A DNA stretch of 4,387 nt, taken from the IMG/VR virus record IMGVR_UViG_2703719367_000020; one strand, 5' to 3'. The notes below the pieces were generated by a model. That model was not told the DNA's origin. It did no database searches and saw nothing but the letters and a program-made list of their open reading frames with translations. The first letter of the stretch is position 1, and each line of letters begins with the position of its first letter. This DNA is from a virus. Lineage: Duplodnaviria; Heunggongvirae; Uroviricota; Caudoviricetes. Both the position numbers and the translations under genes were made by a program. Below are positions 1 to 4,387 of the stretch, in pieces.

Positions 1-498
1 CTGCCCCGCGGACAGCAGAAAGAGGCTCTGCTTGCGTCAGCCGCGCTGCCCCTGTTGTTCCGTCCCCGTGAGGTTCAGGGGACAATGTTCGGTGATGGTG
101 GTATGGGAGGATGGCGAAATATGCAGGGAAATACCCCTGTAACGCCTCTGGTCGATGCCGGATGCAATATGGTGATTGTGACGCATCTGAGTGACGGTTC
201 TTTATGGGATCGCCAGGCTTTTCCGGACACCACAATCCTTGAGATCCGTCCCCGGAAAAGGTTGAAACATGCAGGTGATGGTGGCAACAGTGGCGGTCTG
301 CTCAGTTTCACGTCGGCACATATTGACGCCTGGCGTCAGCAGGGCTACGAGGACACGATGCTGACGATGGAGCATATCCGGAAACCACTGGCGGCGCGTC
401 AGGCACTGACCCGGTCAGAGGCGGTATTACAGAAAAGCCAGGAGATAACTGAAGGTGCAGATTCGGCACTGAGAAACGCGATGGCCCGGATTAAATAA
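1..498 (+). CDS. 3' portion of an upstream gene, 5'-truncated by the window edge; hypothetical protein, product not assignable from this fragment (in related islands a GTPase gene occupies this position upstream of the DUF932 gene, but no G-motif is visible here)
   Basis: Frame 1 is open from base 1 to TAA at 496-498 with no upstream stop; the track's TTG start at 55 is probably internal. GC-rich codon usage like the DUF932 gene. Followed by an intrinsic terminator. Confidence 0.6.
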   Translation: MPRGQQKEALLASAALPLLFRPREVQGTMFGDGGMGGWRNMQGNTPVTPLVDAGCNMVIVTHLSDGSLWDRQAFPDTTILEIRPRKRLKHAGDGGNSGGLLSFTSAHIDAWRQQGYEDTMLTMEHIRKPLAARQALTRSEAVLQKSQEITEGADSALRNAMARIK

Positions 499-517: not shown

Positions 518-541
518 CACCGCCACTGTGGTGGTGTTTTT
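518..541 (+). terminator. Rho-independent terminator of the upstream gene
   Basis: CACCGCCA (518-525) pairs with UGGUGGUG (529-536), 8 bp with one G.U, 3-nt loop CUG, followed by TTTTT (537-541); begins 20 nt after the TAA stop. Confidence 0.6.
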
Positions 542-629
542 CTTATCTGGTGTTATTGAAAATATTTTCAGATAAATATTACCTGGATGATGGTTAAGAT
601 TAATTTATTTAATTTTGGGGAGAAATCTC

Positions 630-1087
630 ATGAAACTGTTAAACATTCTTTTAGCTGTTGTTTTAACTGTAAGTACAACCGTAGCACAAGCAGAATCGGC
701 ATTGTAGAAGCGTAACAGTGTTGCTGGCACCGATATGTTCAGTATCGGTAGTGTTTCTATTAACTGCACGATTAATCCAGAAGACAACAATTTGCTACCA
801 CATATGAGTGGATTTACGGTCATACCCCCACCCCGCTAAATCAGTACGATTCTGATATTATTTTTATCATCAACGGTAAAAAGTATTCGGCCCCACCTGT
901 CGACGGAACACGAATGAATAAGAATGCGTGGGTATACTTTATCGATGCTATCGGTGAAGCCACGAAGCTCGACGTTTTAGTAAACGGTAAGAAAGTCGAC
1001 AGCTATACCGCAAATATCAAAAATGAGAAAAAGACTTTGGGTAACAAATTCTACGGTAGCTGCTGGAACACCTGGTTCCAGGAATAA
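630..1087 (+). pseudogene. Disrupted gene for a small secreted protein: signal-peptide ORF ends at a premature TAG, and the C-terminal body is in a different frame
   Basis: GGGGAG (617-622) sits 7 nt before ATG 630. Translation 630-704 gives MKLLNILLAVVLTVSTTVAQAESAL, a Sec-type signal peptide with an AQA-E cleavage motif, then TAG 705-707. The same frame continues to TAA 837-839. A second frame is open from 776 to TAA 1085-1087 (…YDSDIIFIINGKKYSAPPVDGTRMNKNAWVYFIDAIGEATKLDVLVNGKKVDSYTANIKNEKKTLGNKFYGSCWNTWFQE) and has no ATG/GTG/TTG start before codon 914. Confidence 0.5.
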
Positions 1088-1097
1088 TTGATAACGT

Positions 1098-1122
1098 GGT
1101 GTAAAACACCTCAGTTTAATTT
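1098..1122 (+). terminator. Weak hairpin plus T-rich tract after the decayed gene; possible terminator
   Basis: GGTGT (1098-1102), loop AAA, ACACC (1106-1110), followed by tcagtttaattt. The stem is only 5 bp, so support is weak. Confidence 0.25.
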
Positions 1123-1211
1123 AATACAGTGAGTGAAAATGAATATCATAAAAATATTTTTGTTTTGGATGTCACATGTTTTATTAACTGAATGATTAAC
1201 AGGAGAATCAG

Positions 1212-1751
1212 ATGAACTGGCATTATGAAAAAAATGGTGTACGTTATGATAACGTAACAGAGGAAGATATTATCGAACGTATCCGGCGTGGTGAACTGAA
1301 TGCATCAACACTGGTGTGGCAACAGGGCATGCTGGAATGGCAGCCAGTTTCAGCCACATCACTGGCGGAAATACTGAAACAAAGTGAAGTTCCTCCGGCC
1401 CTTCCGGGTCACCGCATTCCCGGAGACGTTGTCTGGACGCTGGCATTTGCCCCTTTGATTGGGTACATACTTGAGATGTGGACTGCCGGGCTGAACGGTA
1501 TGTCATTTGAACGGGCTTATGATGCAGTCAGCGAAGGCCAGTACTGGTTTATCTCTCTGATTCTGAATATTGCTCTGGGATATCTGGATGAACGAAAACT
1601 CCGTAAATCTGGTGTTGATACCACAGCATTTGGCTGGCTGGCATGGCTGATCCCGGTTTATCTGTGGCGTCGGGCAAAGATCCTCGGGCAAAAACCTGCT
1701 TATTTCTGGGTCTGGCTGGTTATGCTGATACTGGTGTTATTTACGATCTGA
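1212..1751 (+). CDS. Membrane protein with an N-terminal GYF-like (DUF4339-type) domain and about four C-terminal transmembrane helices; function unknown
   Basis: AGGAGA (1201-1206) sits 5 nt before ATG 1212; 179 codons to TGA 1749-1751. The N-terminus WHYEKNGVRYDNVTEEDIIERIRRGELNASTLVWQQGMLEWQPV matches the recalled W-Y..NG..G.V.......G.L...TLVW..GM..WQP pattern. Hydrophobic segments: VVWTLAFAPLIGYILEMW, YWFISLILNIALGYL, AFGWLAWLIPVYLW, AYFWVWLVMLILVLFTI. Confidence 0.8.
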   Translation: MNWHYEKNGVRYDNVTEEDIIERIRRGELNASTLVWQQGMLEWQPVSATSLAEILKQSEVPPALPGHRIPGDVVWTLAFAPLIGYILEMWTAGLNGMSFERAYDAVSEGQYWFISLILNIALGYLDERKLRKSGVDTTAFGWLAWLIPVYLWRRAKILGQKPAYFWVWLVMLILVLFTI

Positions 1752-2020
1752 TATTCTTTCTCGCAGAGTTTGCTAAATAATCAGGTTATTAGTGTTCTTA
1801 ACAGGTAAATGATGTTCATCATGGAACGGATATATTTTATTTGATTCAGGAGACAGTCAGAAACATAGTATAAATATATCACCATGTTGAAGGTCATATC
1901 TTCAGGTATGTGTTTAATAAACAAGTCGGGGGTTAATCCTGACCTCTCGAGTGGATTATAAGTATTGCAGAAACAGTTTTTATACTTTTCTTTAATATCA
2001 GAAACAATGGAGTATTTATC

Positions 2021-2434
2021 ATGAAAAATATCATCACTATTTTAATGATTGCAGTTATCAGTTTCTTTACTGCTAATGTATCAGCAAACAATGCCGTTCC
2101 TTTACCGACCAACCTGACTGACGTTACTGACGGTACAGAATTCTGGTGTCAGGGTACTGATACTATCGACGGAGGTTGTGAATACCTGGGCACATCCAAA
2201 GACATGCAATACGGTCTGGTACACGCCATGGGGGGTACAGCGTGCTGGGATGGTTTATACGGCGTAATTAATTTCTATACCGGTAAAGCCCAGACCATCA
2301 AATACAACAACAATCAAAGTTGTGAAGGCAACATCACCGCCGGTTTCGTTACCCTAAAAAACGGTAAACCGGGCGTTAAACTTTACGACAATACGATTCA
2401 TAAGATTGTCGGGCTTGACGAAATCAAAATTTAA
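2021..2434 (+). CDS. Small exported protein with signal peptide and four cysteines; function unknown
   Basis: GGAG (2009-2012) sits 8 nt before ATG 2021; 137 codons to TAA 2432-2434. The N-terminus MKNIITILMIAVISFFTANVSA is a typical Sec signal peptide (cleavage likely after VSA). The mature part has Cys in WCQG, GGCEY, TACWD and QSCEG. AT-rich codon usage; followed by a terminator. Confidence 0.8.
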   Translation: MKNIITILMIAVISFFTANVSANNAVPLPTNLTDVTDGTEFWCQGTDTIDGGCEYLGTSKDMQYGLVHAMGGTACWDGLYGVINFYTGKAQTIKYNNNQSCEGNITAGFVTLKNGKPGVKLYDNTIHKIVGLDEIKI

Positions 2435-2488
2435 TGTATGAATTATAGTATCTTATCTGCGCGTTATTAATATCAAATGTAAATAAAT

Positions 2489-2519
2489 CCTCTGCCATAA
2501 TGGCAGGGGCTTTATTTTT
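2489..2519 (+). terminator. Rho-independent terminator of the exported-protein gene
   Basis: CCUCUGCCA (2489-2497) pairs with UGGCAGGGG (2501-2509), 9 bp with one G.U, loop UAA, then cTTTATTTTT (2510-2519). Confidence 0.65.
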
Positions 2520-2779
2520 ACCTGAAAATACATGACGGGCTGTACATTACTTTTATTTTCCGAAGATCCTTTCTCACGCAAACAGACAGTTGCTGTCATA
2601 ACAGCTTACCGCAATGTGTTTATCCAGGAATGCATTTCCGGCGGATTATCCGCAACGCGGAAGGTCAGCGACGCTGGCGCTGCCGGAATTCTGAACCCTA
2701 TGCAGGCAAACAACTTAATGCGTGGCTCACCAGTGAAGGGCTTCCCGGACAATAAACCTCATTCATTTCACCCATCAGG

Positions 2780-2809
2780 CCGCGTCTTCTCCGGGAGACG
2801 CGGTTTTTT
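2780..2809 (+). terminator. Strong intrinsic terminator or attenuator hairpin 35 nt upstream of the DUF932 start codon
   Basis: CCGCGUCUUC (2780-2789) pairs with GGGAGACGCGG (2794-2803), about 10 bp with one G.U and loop UCCG, followed by TTTTTT (2804-2809). Confidence 0.7.
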
Positions 2810-2844
2810 CATTTATACCGCTTAATCATTCATAAGGAGCAATT

Positions 2845-3663
2845 ATGCGATTAGCCAGTCGTTTTGGTTATACAAACCAGATACGCCGTGAACGTCCACT
2901 GACACATGAAGAGCTGATGCACTATGTTCCCAGTATTTTTGGAGAAGACCGGCATACCTCCCGCAGTGAACGCTATGCGTACATTCCCACCATCACCGTA
3001 CTGGAAAGTCTGCAGCGGGAAGGCTTTCAGCCATTCTTCGCCTGCCAGACACGTGTGCGTGACCCGGGTCGCCGGGAATACACAAAACACATGCTGCGTC
3101 TGCGCCGTGACGGGGAGATAACCGGACAACATGTCCCTGAAATTATTCTGCTCAACTCCCATGACGGTTCATCCAGCTACCAGATGCTGCCGGGTTACTT
3201 CAGATTCGTCTGCCAGAACGGCTGCGTCTGTGGTCAGTCTCTGGGAGAAGTGCGTGTTCCGCACCGGGGAAATGTGGTGGACAGAGTCATTGAAGGGGCT
3301 TACGAGGTGGTGGGCGTGTTTGACCGGATAGAGGAGAAGCGTGATGCCATGCAGTCGCTGGTCCTGCCGCCACCGGCACGCCAGGCACTGGCGCAGGCGG
3401 CACTGACTTACCGTTATGGTGACGAACATCAGCCCGTCACCACCGCCGACATTCTGACACCACGACGCAGGGAGGATTACGGTAAGGACCTGTGGAGTAC
3501 TTATCAGACCATCCAGGAGAATATGCTGAAAGGCGGGGTTTCCGGGCGCAGTGCAAAAGGAAAACGTATCCACACCCGTGCCATTCACAACATCGACACC
3601 GATATTAAGCTCAACCGCGCATTGTGGGTAATGGCAGAAACGCTGCTGGAGAGTATGCGCTGA
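2845..3663 (+). CDS. DUF932 family protein (YfjQ/YafZ-like, typical of CP4-type prophage-like islands)
   Basis: AAGGAG (2834-2839) sits 5 nt before ATG 2845; 272 codons to TGA 3661-3663. MRLASRFG…YIPTI…GFQPFFACQTRVRDP…HMLRLRR…PEIILLNSHDGSSSYQMLPG…RFVCQNG…EVRVPH…NRALWVMAETLL matches recalled E. coli DUF932 proteins. Family assignment is from memory, not a search. Confidence 0.88.
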   Translation: MRLASRFGYTNQIRRERPLTHEELMHYVPSIFGEDRHTSRSERYAYIPTITVLESLQREGFQPFFACQTRVRDPGRREYTKHMLRLRRDGEITGQHVPEIILLNSHDGSSSYQMLPGYFRFVCQNGCVCGQSLGEVRVPHRGNVVDRVIEGAYEVVGVFDRIEEKRDAMQSLVLPPPARQALAQAALTYRYGDEHQPVTTADILTPRRREDYGKDLWSTYQTIQENMLKGGVSGRSAKGKRIHTRAIHNIDTDIKLNRALWVMAETLLESMR

Positions 3664-3836
3664 TGAAACATATCCCTGAAGGCGTGATTCAGGTACCAGA
3701 ATCACCCGACGCCCCGGAGGCGCTGCCGGGGTGTCGTTCCATTTCTGATGATGACCTGTGCGCCTGGTGTACCCGTCTGCTTTACCGTCCCGGAGAACTC
3801 AGTCTGTGCAGACTGAGTACAGGCAATGGCATCTGA
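3663..3836 (+). CDS. Small hypothetical protein (57 aa), probably translationally coupled to the DUF932 gene
   Basis: ATG 3663-3665 overlaps the DUF932 TGA stop (ATGA at 3661-3665); GGAGAG (3648-3653) sits 9 nt upstream. Product MKHIPEGVIQVPESPDAPEALPGCRSISDDDLCAWCTRLLYRPGELSLCRLSTGNGI, stop TGA 3834-3836. The track's ATG 3624 start lies inside the DUF932 gene and is less likely. No family recognised. Confidence 0.45.
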   Translation: MKHIPEGVIQVPESPDAPEALPGCRSISDDDLCAWCTRLLYRPGELSLCRLSTGNGI

Positions 3837-4001
3837 CCATCCGTCTGTGACCGGAACGGTTACGCGTACGGCTGTCCGGAATTTCAGCCGAATATCATTC
3901 ATCCCTGATATTACCGGGGCTCACGGTCAGTGATGAACGTGATGTTGTCAGCCCCCGGCCTTTACTTCCTCGCATTTATTCACACTACAAGGATTTCACT
4001 C

Positions 4002-4387
4002 ATGAAAATCGTTTCTCAGAACACAACTGCTCTTTCTTCAGCCACAGTACCAGGGAATGACCAGCCCCAACTGGTTGCTACTCCCGTTCCTGATGAACAG
4101 CGCATCAGTTTCTGGCCGCAACATTTTGGCCTCATTCCACAGTGGGTGACCCTGGAGCCCCGTGTCTTCGGCTGGATGGACCGTCTGTGTGAAGACTACT
4201 GCGGTGGTATCTGGAATCTGTACACCCTGAACAACGGCGGGGCATTTATGGCACCTGAACCGGATGAAGATGATGACGAAAACTGGGTACTGTTCAATGC
4301 CATGAACGGTAACCGCGCTGAAATGAGCCCGGAAGCCGCCGGCATTGCCGCCTGTCTGATGGCGTACAGTCATCATGCCTGTCGTAC
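4002..4387 (+). CDS. Antirestriction protein, ArdB/KlcA family (YfjX/YafX-like), 3'-truncated by the window end
   Basis: AAGGA (3989-3993) sits 8 nt before ATG 4002; open to the window edge, so absent from the track. MKIVSQNTT…FWPQHFGLIPQWVTLEPRVFGWMDRLCEDYCGGIWNLYTLNNGGAFMAPE…MNGNRAEMSPEAAGIAACLMAYSHHAC matches the recalled family pattern. Confidence 0.85.
   Translation, partial: MKIVSQNTTALSSATVPGNDQPQLVATPVPDEQRISFWPQHFGLIPQWVTLEPRVFGWMDRLCEDYCGGIWNLYTLNNGGAFMAPEPDEDDDENWVLFNAMNGNRAEMSPEAAGIAACLMAYSHHACR

Follow-up and report, generated by a model that had tools for sequence, protein, structure and literature searches.

The closest described relatives of the locus analysed here are the cryptic prophage islands CP4-44, CP4-57 and CP4-6 of Escherichia coli K-12, with which it shares the backbone genes, their order and the adjacency to a tRNA gene; the comparison was made on gene names and gene order. 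The K-12 names of the backbone genes are yeeP/yfjP/ykfA (GTPase), yfjQ/yafZ (DUF932), yfjX/yafX (antirestriction), yeeS/yfjY/ykfG (RadC), yeeT and cbeA-cbtA, and RefSeq places yeeS, yeeT, cbeA and cbtA on the same genes in sister alleles of our locus. In the equivalent region, the K-12 islands carry small genes for secreted proteins or lipoproteins, namely, yfjS/yafY and yfjT/ykfB; the family names PF27224 YfjT, PF20494 YfjS_YafY and YfjT/YkfB are found in related loci. Unlike the K-12 islands, the source island has genes for Ag43/cah, dynamin, RdcB and a patatin-like protein between the GTPase gene and this region, and it harbors there a rare allele consisting of a YfjT-family pseudogene, a gene for a GYF_2 protein and a gene denoted ORF137.

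The locus also resembles the hotspots of integrative and conjugative elements (ICEs) and the defence hotspots of P4-like satellites, in that conserved flanks enclose alternative contents with a GC content below that of the backbone. By contrast with those hotspots, the contents come from a limited set of gene families particular to these islands and not from unrelated systems for defence or accessory functions, PADLOC finds no matches, the breakpoints are staggered, and many of the states are deletion derivatives. A further point of reference is Ivy, the inhibitor of vertebrate lysozyme: the product of a sister-allele gene aligns weakly to its inhibitory loop, whereas no protein encoded in the window matches it. 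We propose that the AT-rich block at 545-2520 is probably a flexible module of small envelope proteins belonging to the widespread family of CP4-44/CP4-57/CP4-6-type enterobacterial islands and shaped by recombination, deletion and decay.

An AT-rich block in a tRNA-associated island

According to the RefSeq annotation, the source locus is an E. coli O157 genomic island at a tRNA-Ser gene (serW). Its genes run from the GTPase through cah/Ag43, dynamin, RdcB and patatin to the AT-rich block and a DUF905 pseudogene, and onward through DUF932, antirestriction, RadC and CbeA/CbtA; tRNA-Ser comes directly after a DUF4942 gene and is followed by the core genes infA, aat and cydCD. Both the tRNA adjacency of the CP4-44/CP4-57-type family and its ordered backbone (GTPase ... 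DUF932, antirestriction, RadC/JAB, DUF987, CbeA antitoxin, CbtA toxin, all by RefSeq) are present, with Pfam confirming DUF932 and Antirestrict within the window. The order in the family as a whole is GTPase, module, DUF905, DUF932, antirestriction, RadC, DUF987 and CbeA/CbtA. Matches to the island family occur in 4,503 of 5,426 complete E. coli genomes, at a median of three places per typical genome. The block matched a single plasmid record and gave no match to phages, and an Rfam search of the whole window at E <= 1 returned nothing. The window, that is, the entire stretch of 4,387 nt that was analysed, contains the following features.

1..498, plus strand: 3' end (last 165 codons) of a patatin-like phospholipase gene; GC 0.562, the GC-normal left flank
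518..546, plus strand: T1, an intrinsic-terminator-like hairpin with a T-run after the patatin gene, detected by scanning and folding; conserved in all alleles
547..620, plus strand: conserved AT-rich leader, common to alleles with differing downstream genes; part of the flank
630..1087, plus strand: pseudogene of a 152-aa secreted protein of the YfjT/YkfB family, the tail of which is the annotated 57-aa ORF at 914-1087
1212..1751, plus strand: intact gene, under purifying selection, for a protein of 179 aa that has a GYF_2 (DUF4339) domain at its N terminus and, by prediction, four hydrophobic helices
1752..2020, no strand assigned: AT-rich spacer that separates the GYF_2 gene from ORF137; GC 0.32, 73-87% identity with a Salmonella island
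2021..2434, plus strand: ORF137, encoding a protein of 137 aa from the phrog_8968 family; signal peptide predicted, four cysteines conserved
2440..2519, plus strand: conserved trailer that includes terminator T2, common to alleles with differing upstream genes
2532..2755, plus strand: DUF905 pseudogene with a frameshift near 2630 (tblastn in two frames, ~80% identity; a pseudogene also in RefSeq)
2777..2815, plus strand: T3, a conserved hairpin with a T-run 38 nt upstream of the DUF932 start, detected by scanning and folding
2845..3663, plus strand: DUF932 gene (YfjQ-like; Pfam E 1.9e-51); GC 0.553, the GC-normal right flank
3663..3836, plus strand: 57-aa ORF that represents a truncated version of a Cys-rich protein, 81 aa long in other islands, where it comes after DUF932
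4002..4387, plus strand: 5' part of an antirestriction gene of the KlcA/ArdB type (Pfam Antirestrict E 7.8e-21; RefSeq annotation)

Among the flanking genes, the patatin-like gene, annotated by RefSeq as encoding a 356-aa protein, scores below the gathering threshold of Pfam Patatin (E 1.2e-5) because the window edge cuts it. DUF905 is intact in allele L003, where Pfam recognizes it, and the 81-aa protein of the same allele aligns to 3663-3905 with 94% identity, through the stop codon of the truncated ORF (tblastn).

The GC content is not uniform across the window, and the AT-rich block between GC-normal neighbors reported in a preliminary description of this DNA is confirmed, with GC of 0.401 at 545-2520 against 0.561 to the left and 0.535 to the right. 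An unsupervised fit of two change points placed the boundaries at 536 and 2637 (segment GC 0.567, 0.400 and 0.544), with a log-likelihood gain of 49.8 compared with a maximum of 8.3 in 30 shuffles, and relative to 2-kb windows over 44 kb of the source genome, the block falls short of the mean by about 2.6 SD. Other parts of that description do not hold. Composition was said to return to normal after the terminator at 2489-2519, but it does not snap back at 2520, and the segment 2521-2844 has a GC of 0.478. All three genes of the block were said to use A/T-rich codons, but the GC3 of the ORF at 914-1087 (0.569) equals that of the flanks (0.53-0.59 in the flanking genes), the other two ORFs having values of 0.467 and 0.457; pooled GC3 is 0.479 in the block versus 0.574 in the flanks (Fisher p = 0.004). 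Annotated non-coding DNA (GC 0.335) accounts for 63% of the GC deficit, and much of the remainder stems from the amino acid composition (Lys, Asn, Ile and similar) of the 57-aa ORF and ORF137. Across their full length, the module genes have GC of 0.41-0.485, the upper value, near normal for E. coli, being that of the DUF4339 (GYF_2) gene, versus 0.54-0.59 for the flanking genes. The low GC of the block derives mostly from AT-rich spacers and Lys/Asn/Ile-rich secreted proteins, with a modest GC3 shift added, and the AT-rich signature is no proof of a foreign donor.

Alternative contents between conserved flanks

Between the patatin-like gene and DUF932, related E. coli islands show at least five states, one of them near-empty, so that the contents differ among related elements and the proposed variable interval between conserved flanks is borne out. 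Counted by megablast coverage thresholds, which miss rarer alleles and leave out the L004 type, the commonest allele, with an Ivy-like gene and a gene for a 136-aa protein (c136), occurs in 1,881 of 5,426 complete genomes, the near-empty allele in 649, an allele with YfjT, c209 and c150 in 202, and the window allele in 77. The latter is found in the same island type at three chromosomal sites, its other copies adjoining ula/rpsF and cadC. Between alleles, the flanks retain 88-94% nucleotide identity, and the interiors have no detectable nucleotide homology.

Conserved sequence flanks the module on both sides, with a terminator hairpin at the end of each flank. At both 518-546 and 2489-2519, a G+C-rich hairpin directly followed by a T-run is more stable than shuffled sequence and is predicted to act as a terminator (T1 stem 518-536 with T-run, -24.4 kcal/mol, z -5.1; T2 stem 2489-2509 with T-run, -18.8 kcal/mol, z -4.5). 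T1 is nearly invariant across seven alleles, as is T3 (-22 kcal/mol, z -5.2) across the alleles, in which the changes seen yield G-U pairs. Thus, the hairpins that had been suggested to bound the block do exist, but both sit inside the conserved flanks and do not delimit the variable part. On the left, homology between alleles ends at 585, 601, 620 or 691, 40-150 nt past T1, the positions 546-585 being common to ~2,200 genomes; on the right, it resumes at 2440-2453, upstream of T2, or at 2634 to 2725. The near-empty allele joins ~620 to ~2634. Because the leader as far as 620 and the 3' half of DUF905 are still present in it, this allele represents a deletion rather than an unoccupied site with a clean junction.

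Searches for direct and inverted repeats that could signal site-specific recombination yielded only short, AT-rich pairs at chance level. Two candidates were rejected: a 17-nt inverted repeat (I3, 563-579/2514-2530) considered as a boundary site is not conserved in L003 or L004, and neither this repeat nor one flanking the GYF_2 gene (I1, 1119-1148/1749-1778) is conserved in other alleles or at the Salmonella locus.

Proteins of the module

The block had been described as carrying three genes, one of which, the ORF at 914-1087, is the tail of the pseudogene spanning 630-1087. A tblastn search with the 155-aa protein of L003 (c155) yielded an alignment to the window that is split over two frames and contains an in-frame stop (E 1e-26). 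The codon TGG has become TAG at 706, 1 nt is missing near 806, and strain PK8241 has an undamaged copy of the gene. The intact orthologue (L013) matches c155, which RefSeq names YfjT/YkfB family, with E 4e-45 and a PF27224 protein of Yersinia with E 8e-27, so that, judged by similarity to named members, the pseudogene belongs to the YfjT/YkfB family (PF27224). A PDB sequence search with the YfjT-like protein returned nothing.

The GYF_2 protein matches Pfam PF14237 with E 5e-12 (45.8 bits against a cut-off of 25.8). Its AF2 model has a pLDDT of 85, and matches to solved structures are limited to the GYF domain, the Foldseek matches including GltJ. ORF137 matches the full-length profile of phrog_8968 (E 9e-37 over residues 1-135), which also recognizes c136 (E 2.6e-45), the protein encoded in the corresponding position by the last gene of the commonest allele; the two proteins share 35% identity (tblastn E 7e-19). 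The ORF137 family has just 18 representatives among 1.84 billion proteins. Its AF2 model is all-beta (pLDDT 82), the fold search returned no solved structural relative, and a profile search against PDB sequences returned nothing.

In the sister alleles, c180 of L004 resembles c209 of L003 and, by eye from the translations, a 215-aa protein of Yersinia. Judged from translations alone, the proteins of all alleles have signal-peptide-like or membrane-spanning N-termini. The Ivy-like gene, located at 3034-3516 in L004 and in the second half of a 227-aa ORF in L006, matches weakly and below curated thresholds (NCBIfam E 4e-4, Pfam E 0.0085, PDB 1gpq E 0.16), the alignment centering on the CKPHDC loop of Ivy, which reads CKAHAC in this family. 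PADLOC gave no matches for the 179-aa protein, ORF137 or the sister-allele proteins, and Pfam, NCBIfam, PADLOC, PHROGs and two fold searches yielded no functional assignment of the three module proteins. Literature searches turned up no work on the function of the interval or its small proteins.

Neither the GYF_2 gene nor ORF137 is disrupted in any examined carrier of the window allele, and both have dN/dS of 0.08-0.13, equal to that of DUF932 (0.08 for the GYF_2 gene compared with Salmonella; 0.11 for ORF137). Among the carriers, dS amounts to only 0.03-0.07 in the module but to 0.17-0.27 in DUF932, as would be expected if backbones had exchanged the module.

Origin of the module and its significance

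Wherever homologues of the GYF_2 protein and ORF137 could be traced (Yersinia, Citrobacter, Salmonella and E. coli), they lie inside this island family, and the same holds for every traced homologue of the YfjT/YkfB-family pseudogene. The collinearity of window positions 1212-3808 with a Salmonella island extends over the point where cargo was supposed to meet backbone. Among the 18 representatives of the ORF137 family, no taxon outside the island context was identified; in a scan of species-representative genomes, the sole match, in a Dehalococcoidia genome, was spurious. The search for the lower-GC donor from which the block was said to have been loaded turned up only Enterobacterales island genes, and the GYF_2 orthologues in other genera have a higher GC (0.555-0.579 versus 0.485 here, a difference of ~0.07-0.09).

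The preliminary description had taken the block for a cargo slot: the terminators would mark its ends within an otherwise fixed backbone, and it would have been loaded with unrelated genes of a lower-GC donor. The sharp GC change at 536, the differing gene sets and near-empty state of the interval, and the lower GC of the module genes all fit this scheme, and the contents do vary between conserved flanks. However, these genes are the island family's own and not unrelated cargo: as far as homologues were traced, the gene families recur within this island family only, and the alleles share them (the window pseudogene with c155 of L003, ORF137 with c136). Considering, in addition, the location of the terminators inside the flanks, the deletion origin of the "empty" allele, the collinearity with the Salmonella island, the lack of conserved flanking repeats and the failure to find a donor, we regard insertion of foreign cargo as improbable. 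Even less credible, in our opinion, is that the block is decaying, non-functional DNA that became AT-rich through mutation bias under relaxed selection. Three damaged genes in a 4.4-kb window (the YfjT-family pseudogene, the DUF905 pseudogene and the truncated 81-aa ORF) and the reduced GC of the GYF_2 gene would be expected under such decay, but the two genes that remain intact in every carrier evolve with the same dN/dS as DUF932, which largely rules out junk DNA for both of them, and the spacer at 1752..2020 is conserved with Salmonella.

An alternative compatible with the envelope-protein module, albeit a rather unlikely one, is an arms-race locus of envelope shield proteins under diversifying selection. 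Tentative candidate roles include muramidase inhibitors of the Ivy type, immunity against periplasm-acting toxins, and superinfection or phage exclusion, in proteins that the islands would carry and swap. This possibility is suggested by the N-termini of the encoded proteins, the weak resemblance of one sister-allele family to Ivy, the 35% identity of same-position homologues beside ~90% identical flanks, and the neighboring conflict genes (antirestriction, CbtA/CbeA, a type I restriction-modification system and DarTG). Conversely, the Ivy match falls under curated thresholds and concerns a gene outside the window, PADLOC is silent, ORF137 has no solved structural relative, and pairwise dN/dS of 0.08-0.27 indicates purifying rather than diversifying selection within lineages.

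Under the flexible envelope-protein module that we favor, the window allele would comprise the remains of a YfjT/YkfB-family gene together with two intact components, the inner-membrane GYF_2 protein and the periplasmic four-cysteine ORF137. Paralogous islands would swap segments by homologous recombination in the flanks, generating allele differences, to which deletions and point decay would add; the mosaic patterns of identity suggest that such inter-island recombination takes place. The module proteins presumably have their site of action in the cell envelope. H-NS probably silences the AT-rich DNA, and promoters belonging to the module itself may lie in the spacers. The markedly lower GC of the E. 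coli genes compared with their orthologues in other genera may reflect some history in a lower-GC background or AT-biased drift.

The AT-rich module appears to be a fairly ordinary feature of a very common E. coli island family. The practical value of these findings lies mostly in annotation: the interval is to be treated as a recombining module, and the 57-aa "hypothetical protein" as the tail of a pseudogene. If envelope protection proves true, it would provide a function for y-ome genes (yfjT, ykfB, yfjS, yafY and relatives) in thousands of E. coli genomes, and the allele series would offer natural variants for testing these long-uncharacterised E. coli families.

Composition and gene content of the block

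The segment at 545-2520 has a GC content of 0.401, compared with 0.561 in the left flank and 0.535 in the right flank, and an unsupervised two-change-point fit placed its limits at 536 and 2637 (log-likelihood gain 49.8; shuffled sequences reached no more than 8.3), so that the AT-rich block is real. Both terminators that had been proposed to enclose it are present, each as a stable hairpin followed by a T-run: terminator 1, downstream of the patatin-like gene (-24.4 kcal/mol, z -5.1), and terminator 2, to the right of the last block gene (-18.8 kcal/mol, z -4.5). Instead of the return to normal GC claimed after terminator 2, GC recovers gradually, with 0.478 in the segment 2521-2844. The claim of A/T-rich codons in all three annotated ORFs is weaker: GC3 is lower in the pooled set (0.479 vs 0.574 in flanking genes, p = 0.004), but not in the first ORF; the individual values are 0.569, 0.467 and 0.457, and those of the flanking genes 0.53-0.59. 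Annotated non-coding DNA (GC 0.335) accounts for 63% of the GC deficit of the block, the 57-aa and 137-aa ORFs are enriched in amino acids with AT-rich codons, and the DUF4339 (GYF_2) gene, at GC 0.485, is unremarkable for E. coli.

Genes in and beside the block
630-1087: YfjT/YkfB-family pseudogene (152-aa secreted protein); a 155-aa sister-allele protein aligns in two frames across an in-frame stop
1212-1751: 179-aa protein; GYF_2 domain at the N-terminus (Pfam E 5e-12), hydrophobic helices predicted (four)
2021-2434: 137-aa protein (ORF137) with four conserved cysteines and, by sequence inspection, a signal-peptide-like N-terminus; phrog_8968 match
2532-2755: frameshifted DUF905 gene, just right of the block
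3663-3905: 57-aa ORF after DUF932, its start overlapping the DUF932 stop (TGATG); truncated copy of an 81-86-aa Cys-rich protein with the motif ISDDDxCAWC...

The YfjT/YkfB-family gene is intact in strain PK8241, and the window copy is disrupted by a TGG to TAG change at 706 and by the loss of 1 nt near 806; the annotated 57-aa ORF at 914-1087 is simply the tail of this pseudogene. An all-beta fold is predicted for ORF137 (AF2, pLDDT 82), for which a fold search found no solved structural relative, and its family is tiny, with 18 representatives among 1.84 billion proteins. Other E. coli alleles, as well as Yersinia, have the 81-86-aa Cys-rich protein encoded after DUF932; its alignment to 3663-3905 passes through a stop codon at 3834-3836.

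Several smaller elements were also observed. The stretch 3665-3986, between DUF932 and the antirestriction gene, is a second variable spot, where the window ceases to be homologous to several sister alleles; depending on the allele, the small ORF is retained, truncated or missing. A hairpin with a T-run at 2777-2815 (-22 kcal/mol, z -5.2) lies 38 nt before the start of DUF932. It is strongly conserved, with almost no variation among seven alleles, and both substitutions in sister allele L003 yield G-U pairs. The hairpin probably serves as the terminator of DUF905, but its position is directly ahead of the DUF932 ribosome-binding site. On the minus strand of the conserved trailer, a near-consensus sigma-70-like site (2442-2470; TTAATA-17 nt-TATAAT, 10/12 matches) points antisense into ORF137, though AT-rich DNA could yield such a match by chance. 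The GYF_2 gene is bracketed by a 30-nt imperfect inverted repeat (1119-1148 / 1749-1778, 70% complementary), probably also by chance, since the left arm lies outside the stretch collinear with Salmonella.

Alleles of the patatin-DUF932 interval

The preliminary description regarded the block as cargo loaded from a lower-GC donor into a variable slot bounded by the terminators. The interval is indeed variable among related islands, with several states in E. coli.

States of the interval, counted among 5426 complete E. coli genomes (cNNN, sister-allele protein of that length)
Window allele: 77 genomes
c180-like remnant fused to Ivy-like gene, then 136-aa gene: 1881 genomes
YfjT-like c155, c209, c150, intact DUF905: 202 genomes
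c180 and Ivy-like pseudogene: frequency outside the count
Near-empty: 649 genomes

The terminators, however, do not bound the variable part, because the breakpoints are staggered and lie inside them. On the left, homology to other alleles passes terminator 1, extending to 585, 601, 620 or 691; on the right, it picks up again at 2440-2453, ahead of terminator 2, which is common to alleles with differing upstream genes. The near-empty allele joins ~620 to ~2634, a junction that falls mid-DUF905 and thus marks it as a deletion derivative, and the commonest allele carries a further deletion, from mid-terminator 2 to ~2714. Gene families are shared between states: ORF137 has a homologue in c136, which occupies the same position immediately ahead of the conserved trailer (35% identity at E 7e-19, both in one PHROG family), c155 is homologous to the pseudogene at 630-1087, and c180, c209 and the Yersinia/Salmonella 215/188-aa proteins look like one family when their translations are compared by eye. 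Conserved repeats were sought at the interval boundaries and none were found. Taken together, the staggered breakpoints, the deletion-type empty allele, the shared gene families and the absence of conserved boundary repeats do not agree with a terminator-bounded insertion slot.

Island context and the donor question

Several E. coli O157 chromosomes carry the window at 100% identity, for example that of strain 644-PT8, where the island adjoins tRNA-Ser, beside infA, aat and cydCD. Its order is: type I restriction-modification genes with embedded darTG, two AT-rich hypothetical genes, GTPase, cah (Ag43 homologue), dynamin-family, RdcB-family and patatin-like phospholipase genes, the AT-rich block, DUF905 remnant, DUF932, small ORF, antirestriction, JAB/RadC, DUF987, YeeU/CbeA, CbtA, DUF5983, DUF957, DUF4942 and tRNA-Ser. 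This backbone is that of the CP4-44 / CP4-57 / CP4-6 island family. Parts of the window were matched in 4503 of 5426 complete E. coli genomes, at a median of three places per genome, and the window allele occurs at three chromosomal sites in the same island type (serW/infA, ula/rpsF and cadC).

Upstream, the source island (L001) holds further features. A darT-darG toxin-antitoxin pair lies inside the restriction-modification operon (1-8321, ~12-20 kb upstream of the window; hsdR, darG, darT, hsdS, hsdM). A second AT-rich patch at 9000-11600, with two hypothetical genes (459 and 172 aa), is richer still in AT than the block, with 2-kb windows as low as GC 0.377. Immediately upstream of the window (16145-20498), three genes whose coding ends overlap (dynamin-family, RdcB-family and patatin-like) make up one unit, which could be a defence-like or membrane-remodelling system; the dynamin weakly matches PADLOC LeoBC (E 1.7e-4) and the patatin a phospholipase 'Effector' model (E 6.6e-5).

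The GYF_2 protein has homologues at 64-77% identity in Yersinia, Citrobacter koseri, Salmonella, Serratia, Hafnia, Buttiauxella and other Enterobacterales. Every context traced (three Yersinia loci, C. koseri, Salmonella, two more E. coli loci and two loci carrying an ORF137 relative at 41% identity) belongs to the same island family, between GTPase and DUF905/DUF932/antirestriction genes, often with a WYL-like regulator after the GTPase and usually with YfjT, YfjS/YafY-type or 136/145/150-aa secreted proteins as neighbours. A single alignment of 1212-3808 to the Salmonella island is collinear through GYF_2, spacer, ORF137, DUF905, DUF932 and small ORF, and the supposed cargo is more similar (73-89%) than DUF905/DUF932 (61-80%). 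The block matched none of 50,697 phage records and a single plasmid record. Since dynamin and patatin genes are absent from most of the homologous islands traced, the small-protein module seems to belong to the common layout of the family, and the GC-normal Ag43-dynamin-RdcB-patatin block to be a lineage-specific addition, judging from five contexts.

Loading from a low-GC donor is likewise not supported: none was identified, and GYF_2 orthologues in other genera have a higher GC (0.555-0.579) than the window gene. All module genes in their E. coli versions, and Salmonella ORF137, have GC 0.41-0.49, pointing to an AT shift in the E. coli lineage of the module, which could stem from a period in a lower-GC host, from drift biased towards AT or from silencing-linked selection. 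Both intact module genes are under purifying selection (dN/dS against Salmonella 0.08 for GYF_2 and 0.11 for ORF137; DUF932, 0.11). Among carriers of the window allele, the module has a dS of 0.03-0.07, below the 0.17-0.27 of DUF932, consistent with recombination having carried the module onto diverged backbones.

Possible function and significance

Pfam, NCBIfam, PADLOC and PHROGs assign no function to the module proteins, and a literature search found no study of them. The sole functional lead lies outside the window, in a 160-aa secreted protein of sister alleles (L004, 3034-3516; L006, the commonest, 2134-2817) that weakly matches Ivy, a periplasmic lysozyme inhibitor. The alignment is centred on the Ivy inhibitory loop (CKAHAC vs CKPHDC in Ivy), with all scores below thresholds (NCBIfam E 4e-4, Pfam E 0.0085, PDB 1gpq E 0.16). 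In the commonest allele, the annotation makes this protein the second half of a 227-aa ORF, which arose when a deletion joined the Ivy-like gene to the N-terminus of a c180-like gene; the true start of the protein is thus probably the internal Met (MKRLHTLML...). Our working model places the module proteins at the cell envelope, as accessory proteins of the island; a protective role, as inhibitor, immunity or exclusion factors, is conceivable but unlikely.

Thus, the compositional observation was largely right and the proposed variability of the region was borne out; the block is a rare allele of an accessory module that recombines and is partly decaying, within an island family that is well known. 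The biology is ordinary, and the finding is of some worth for annotation.
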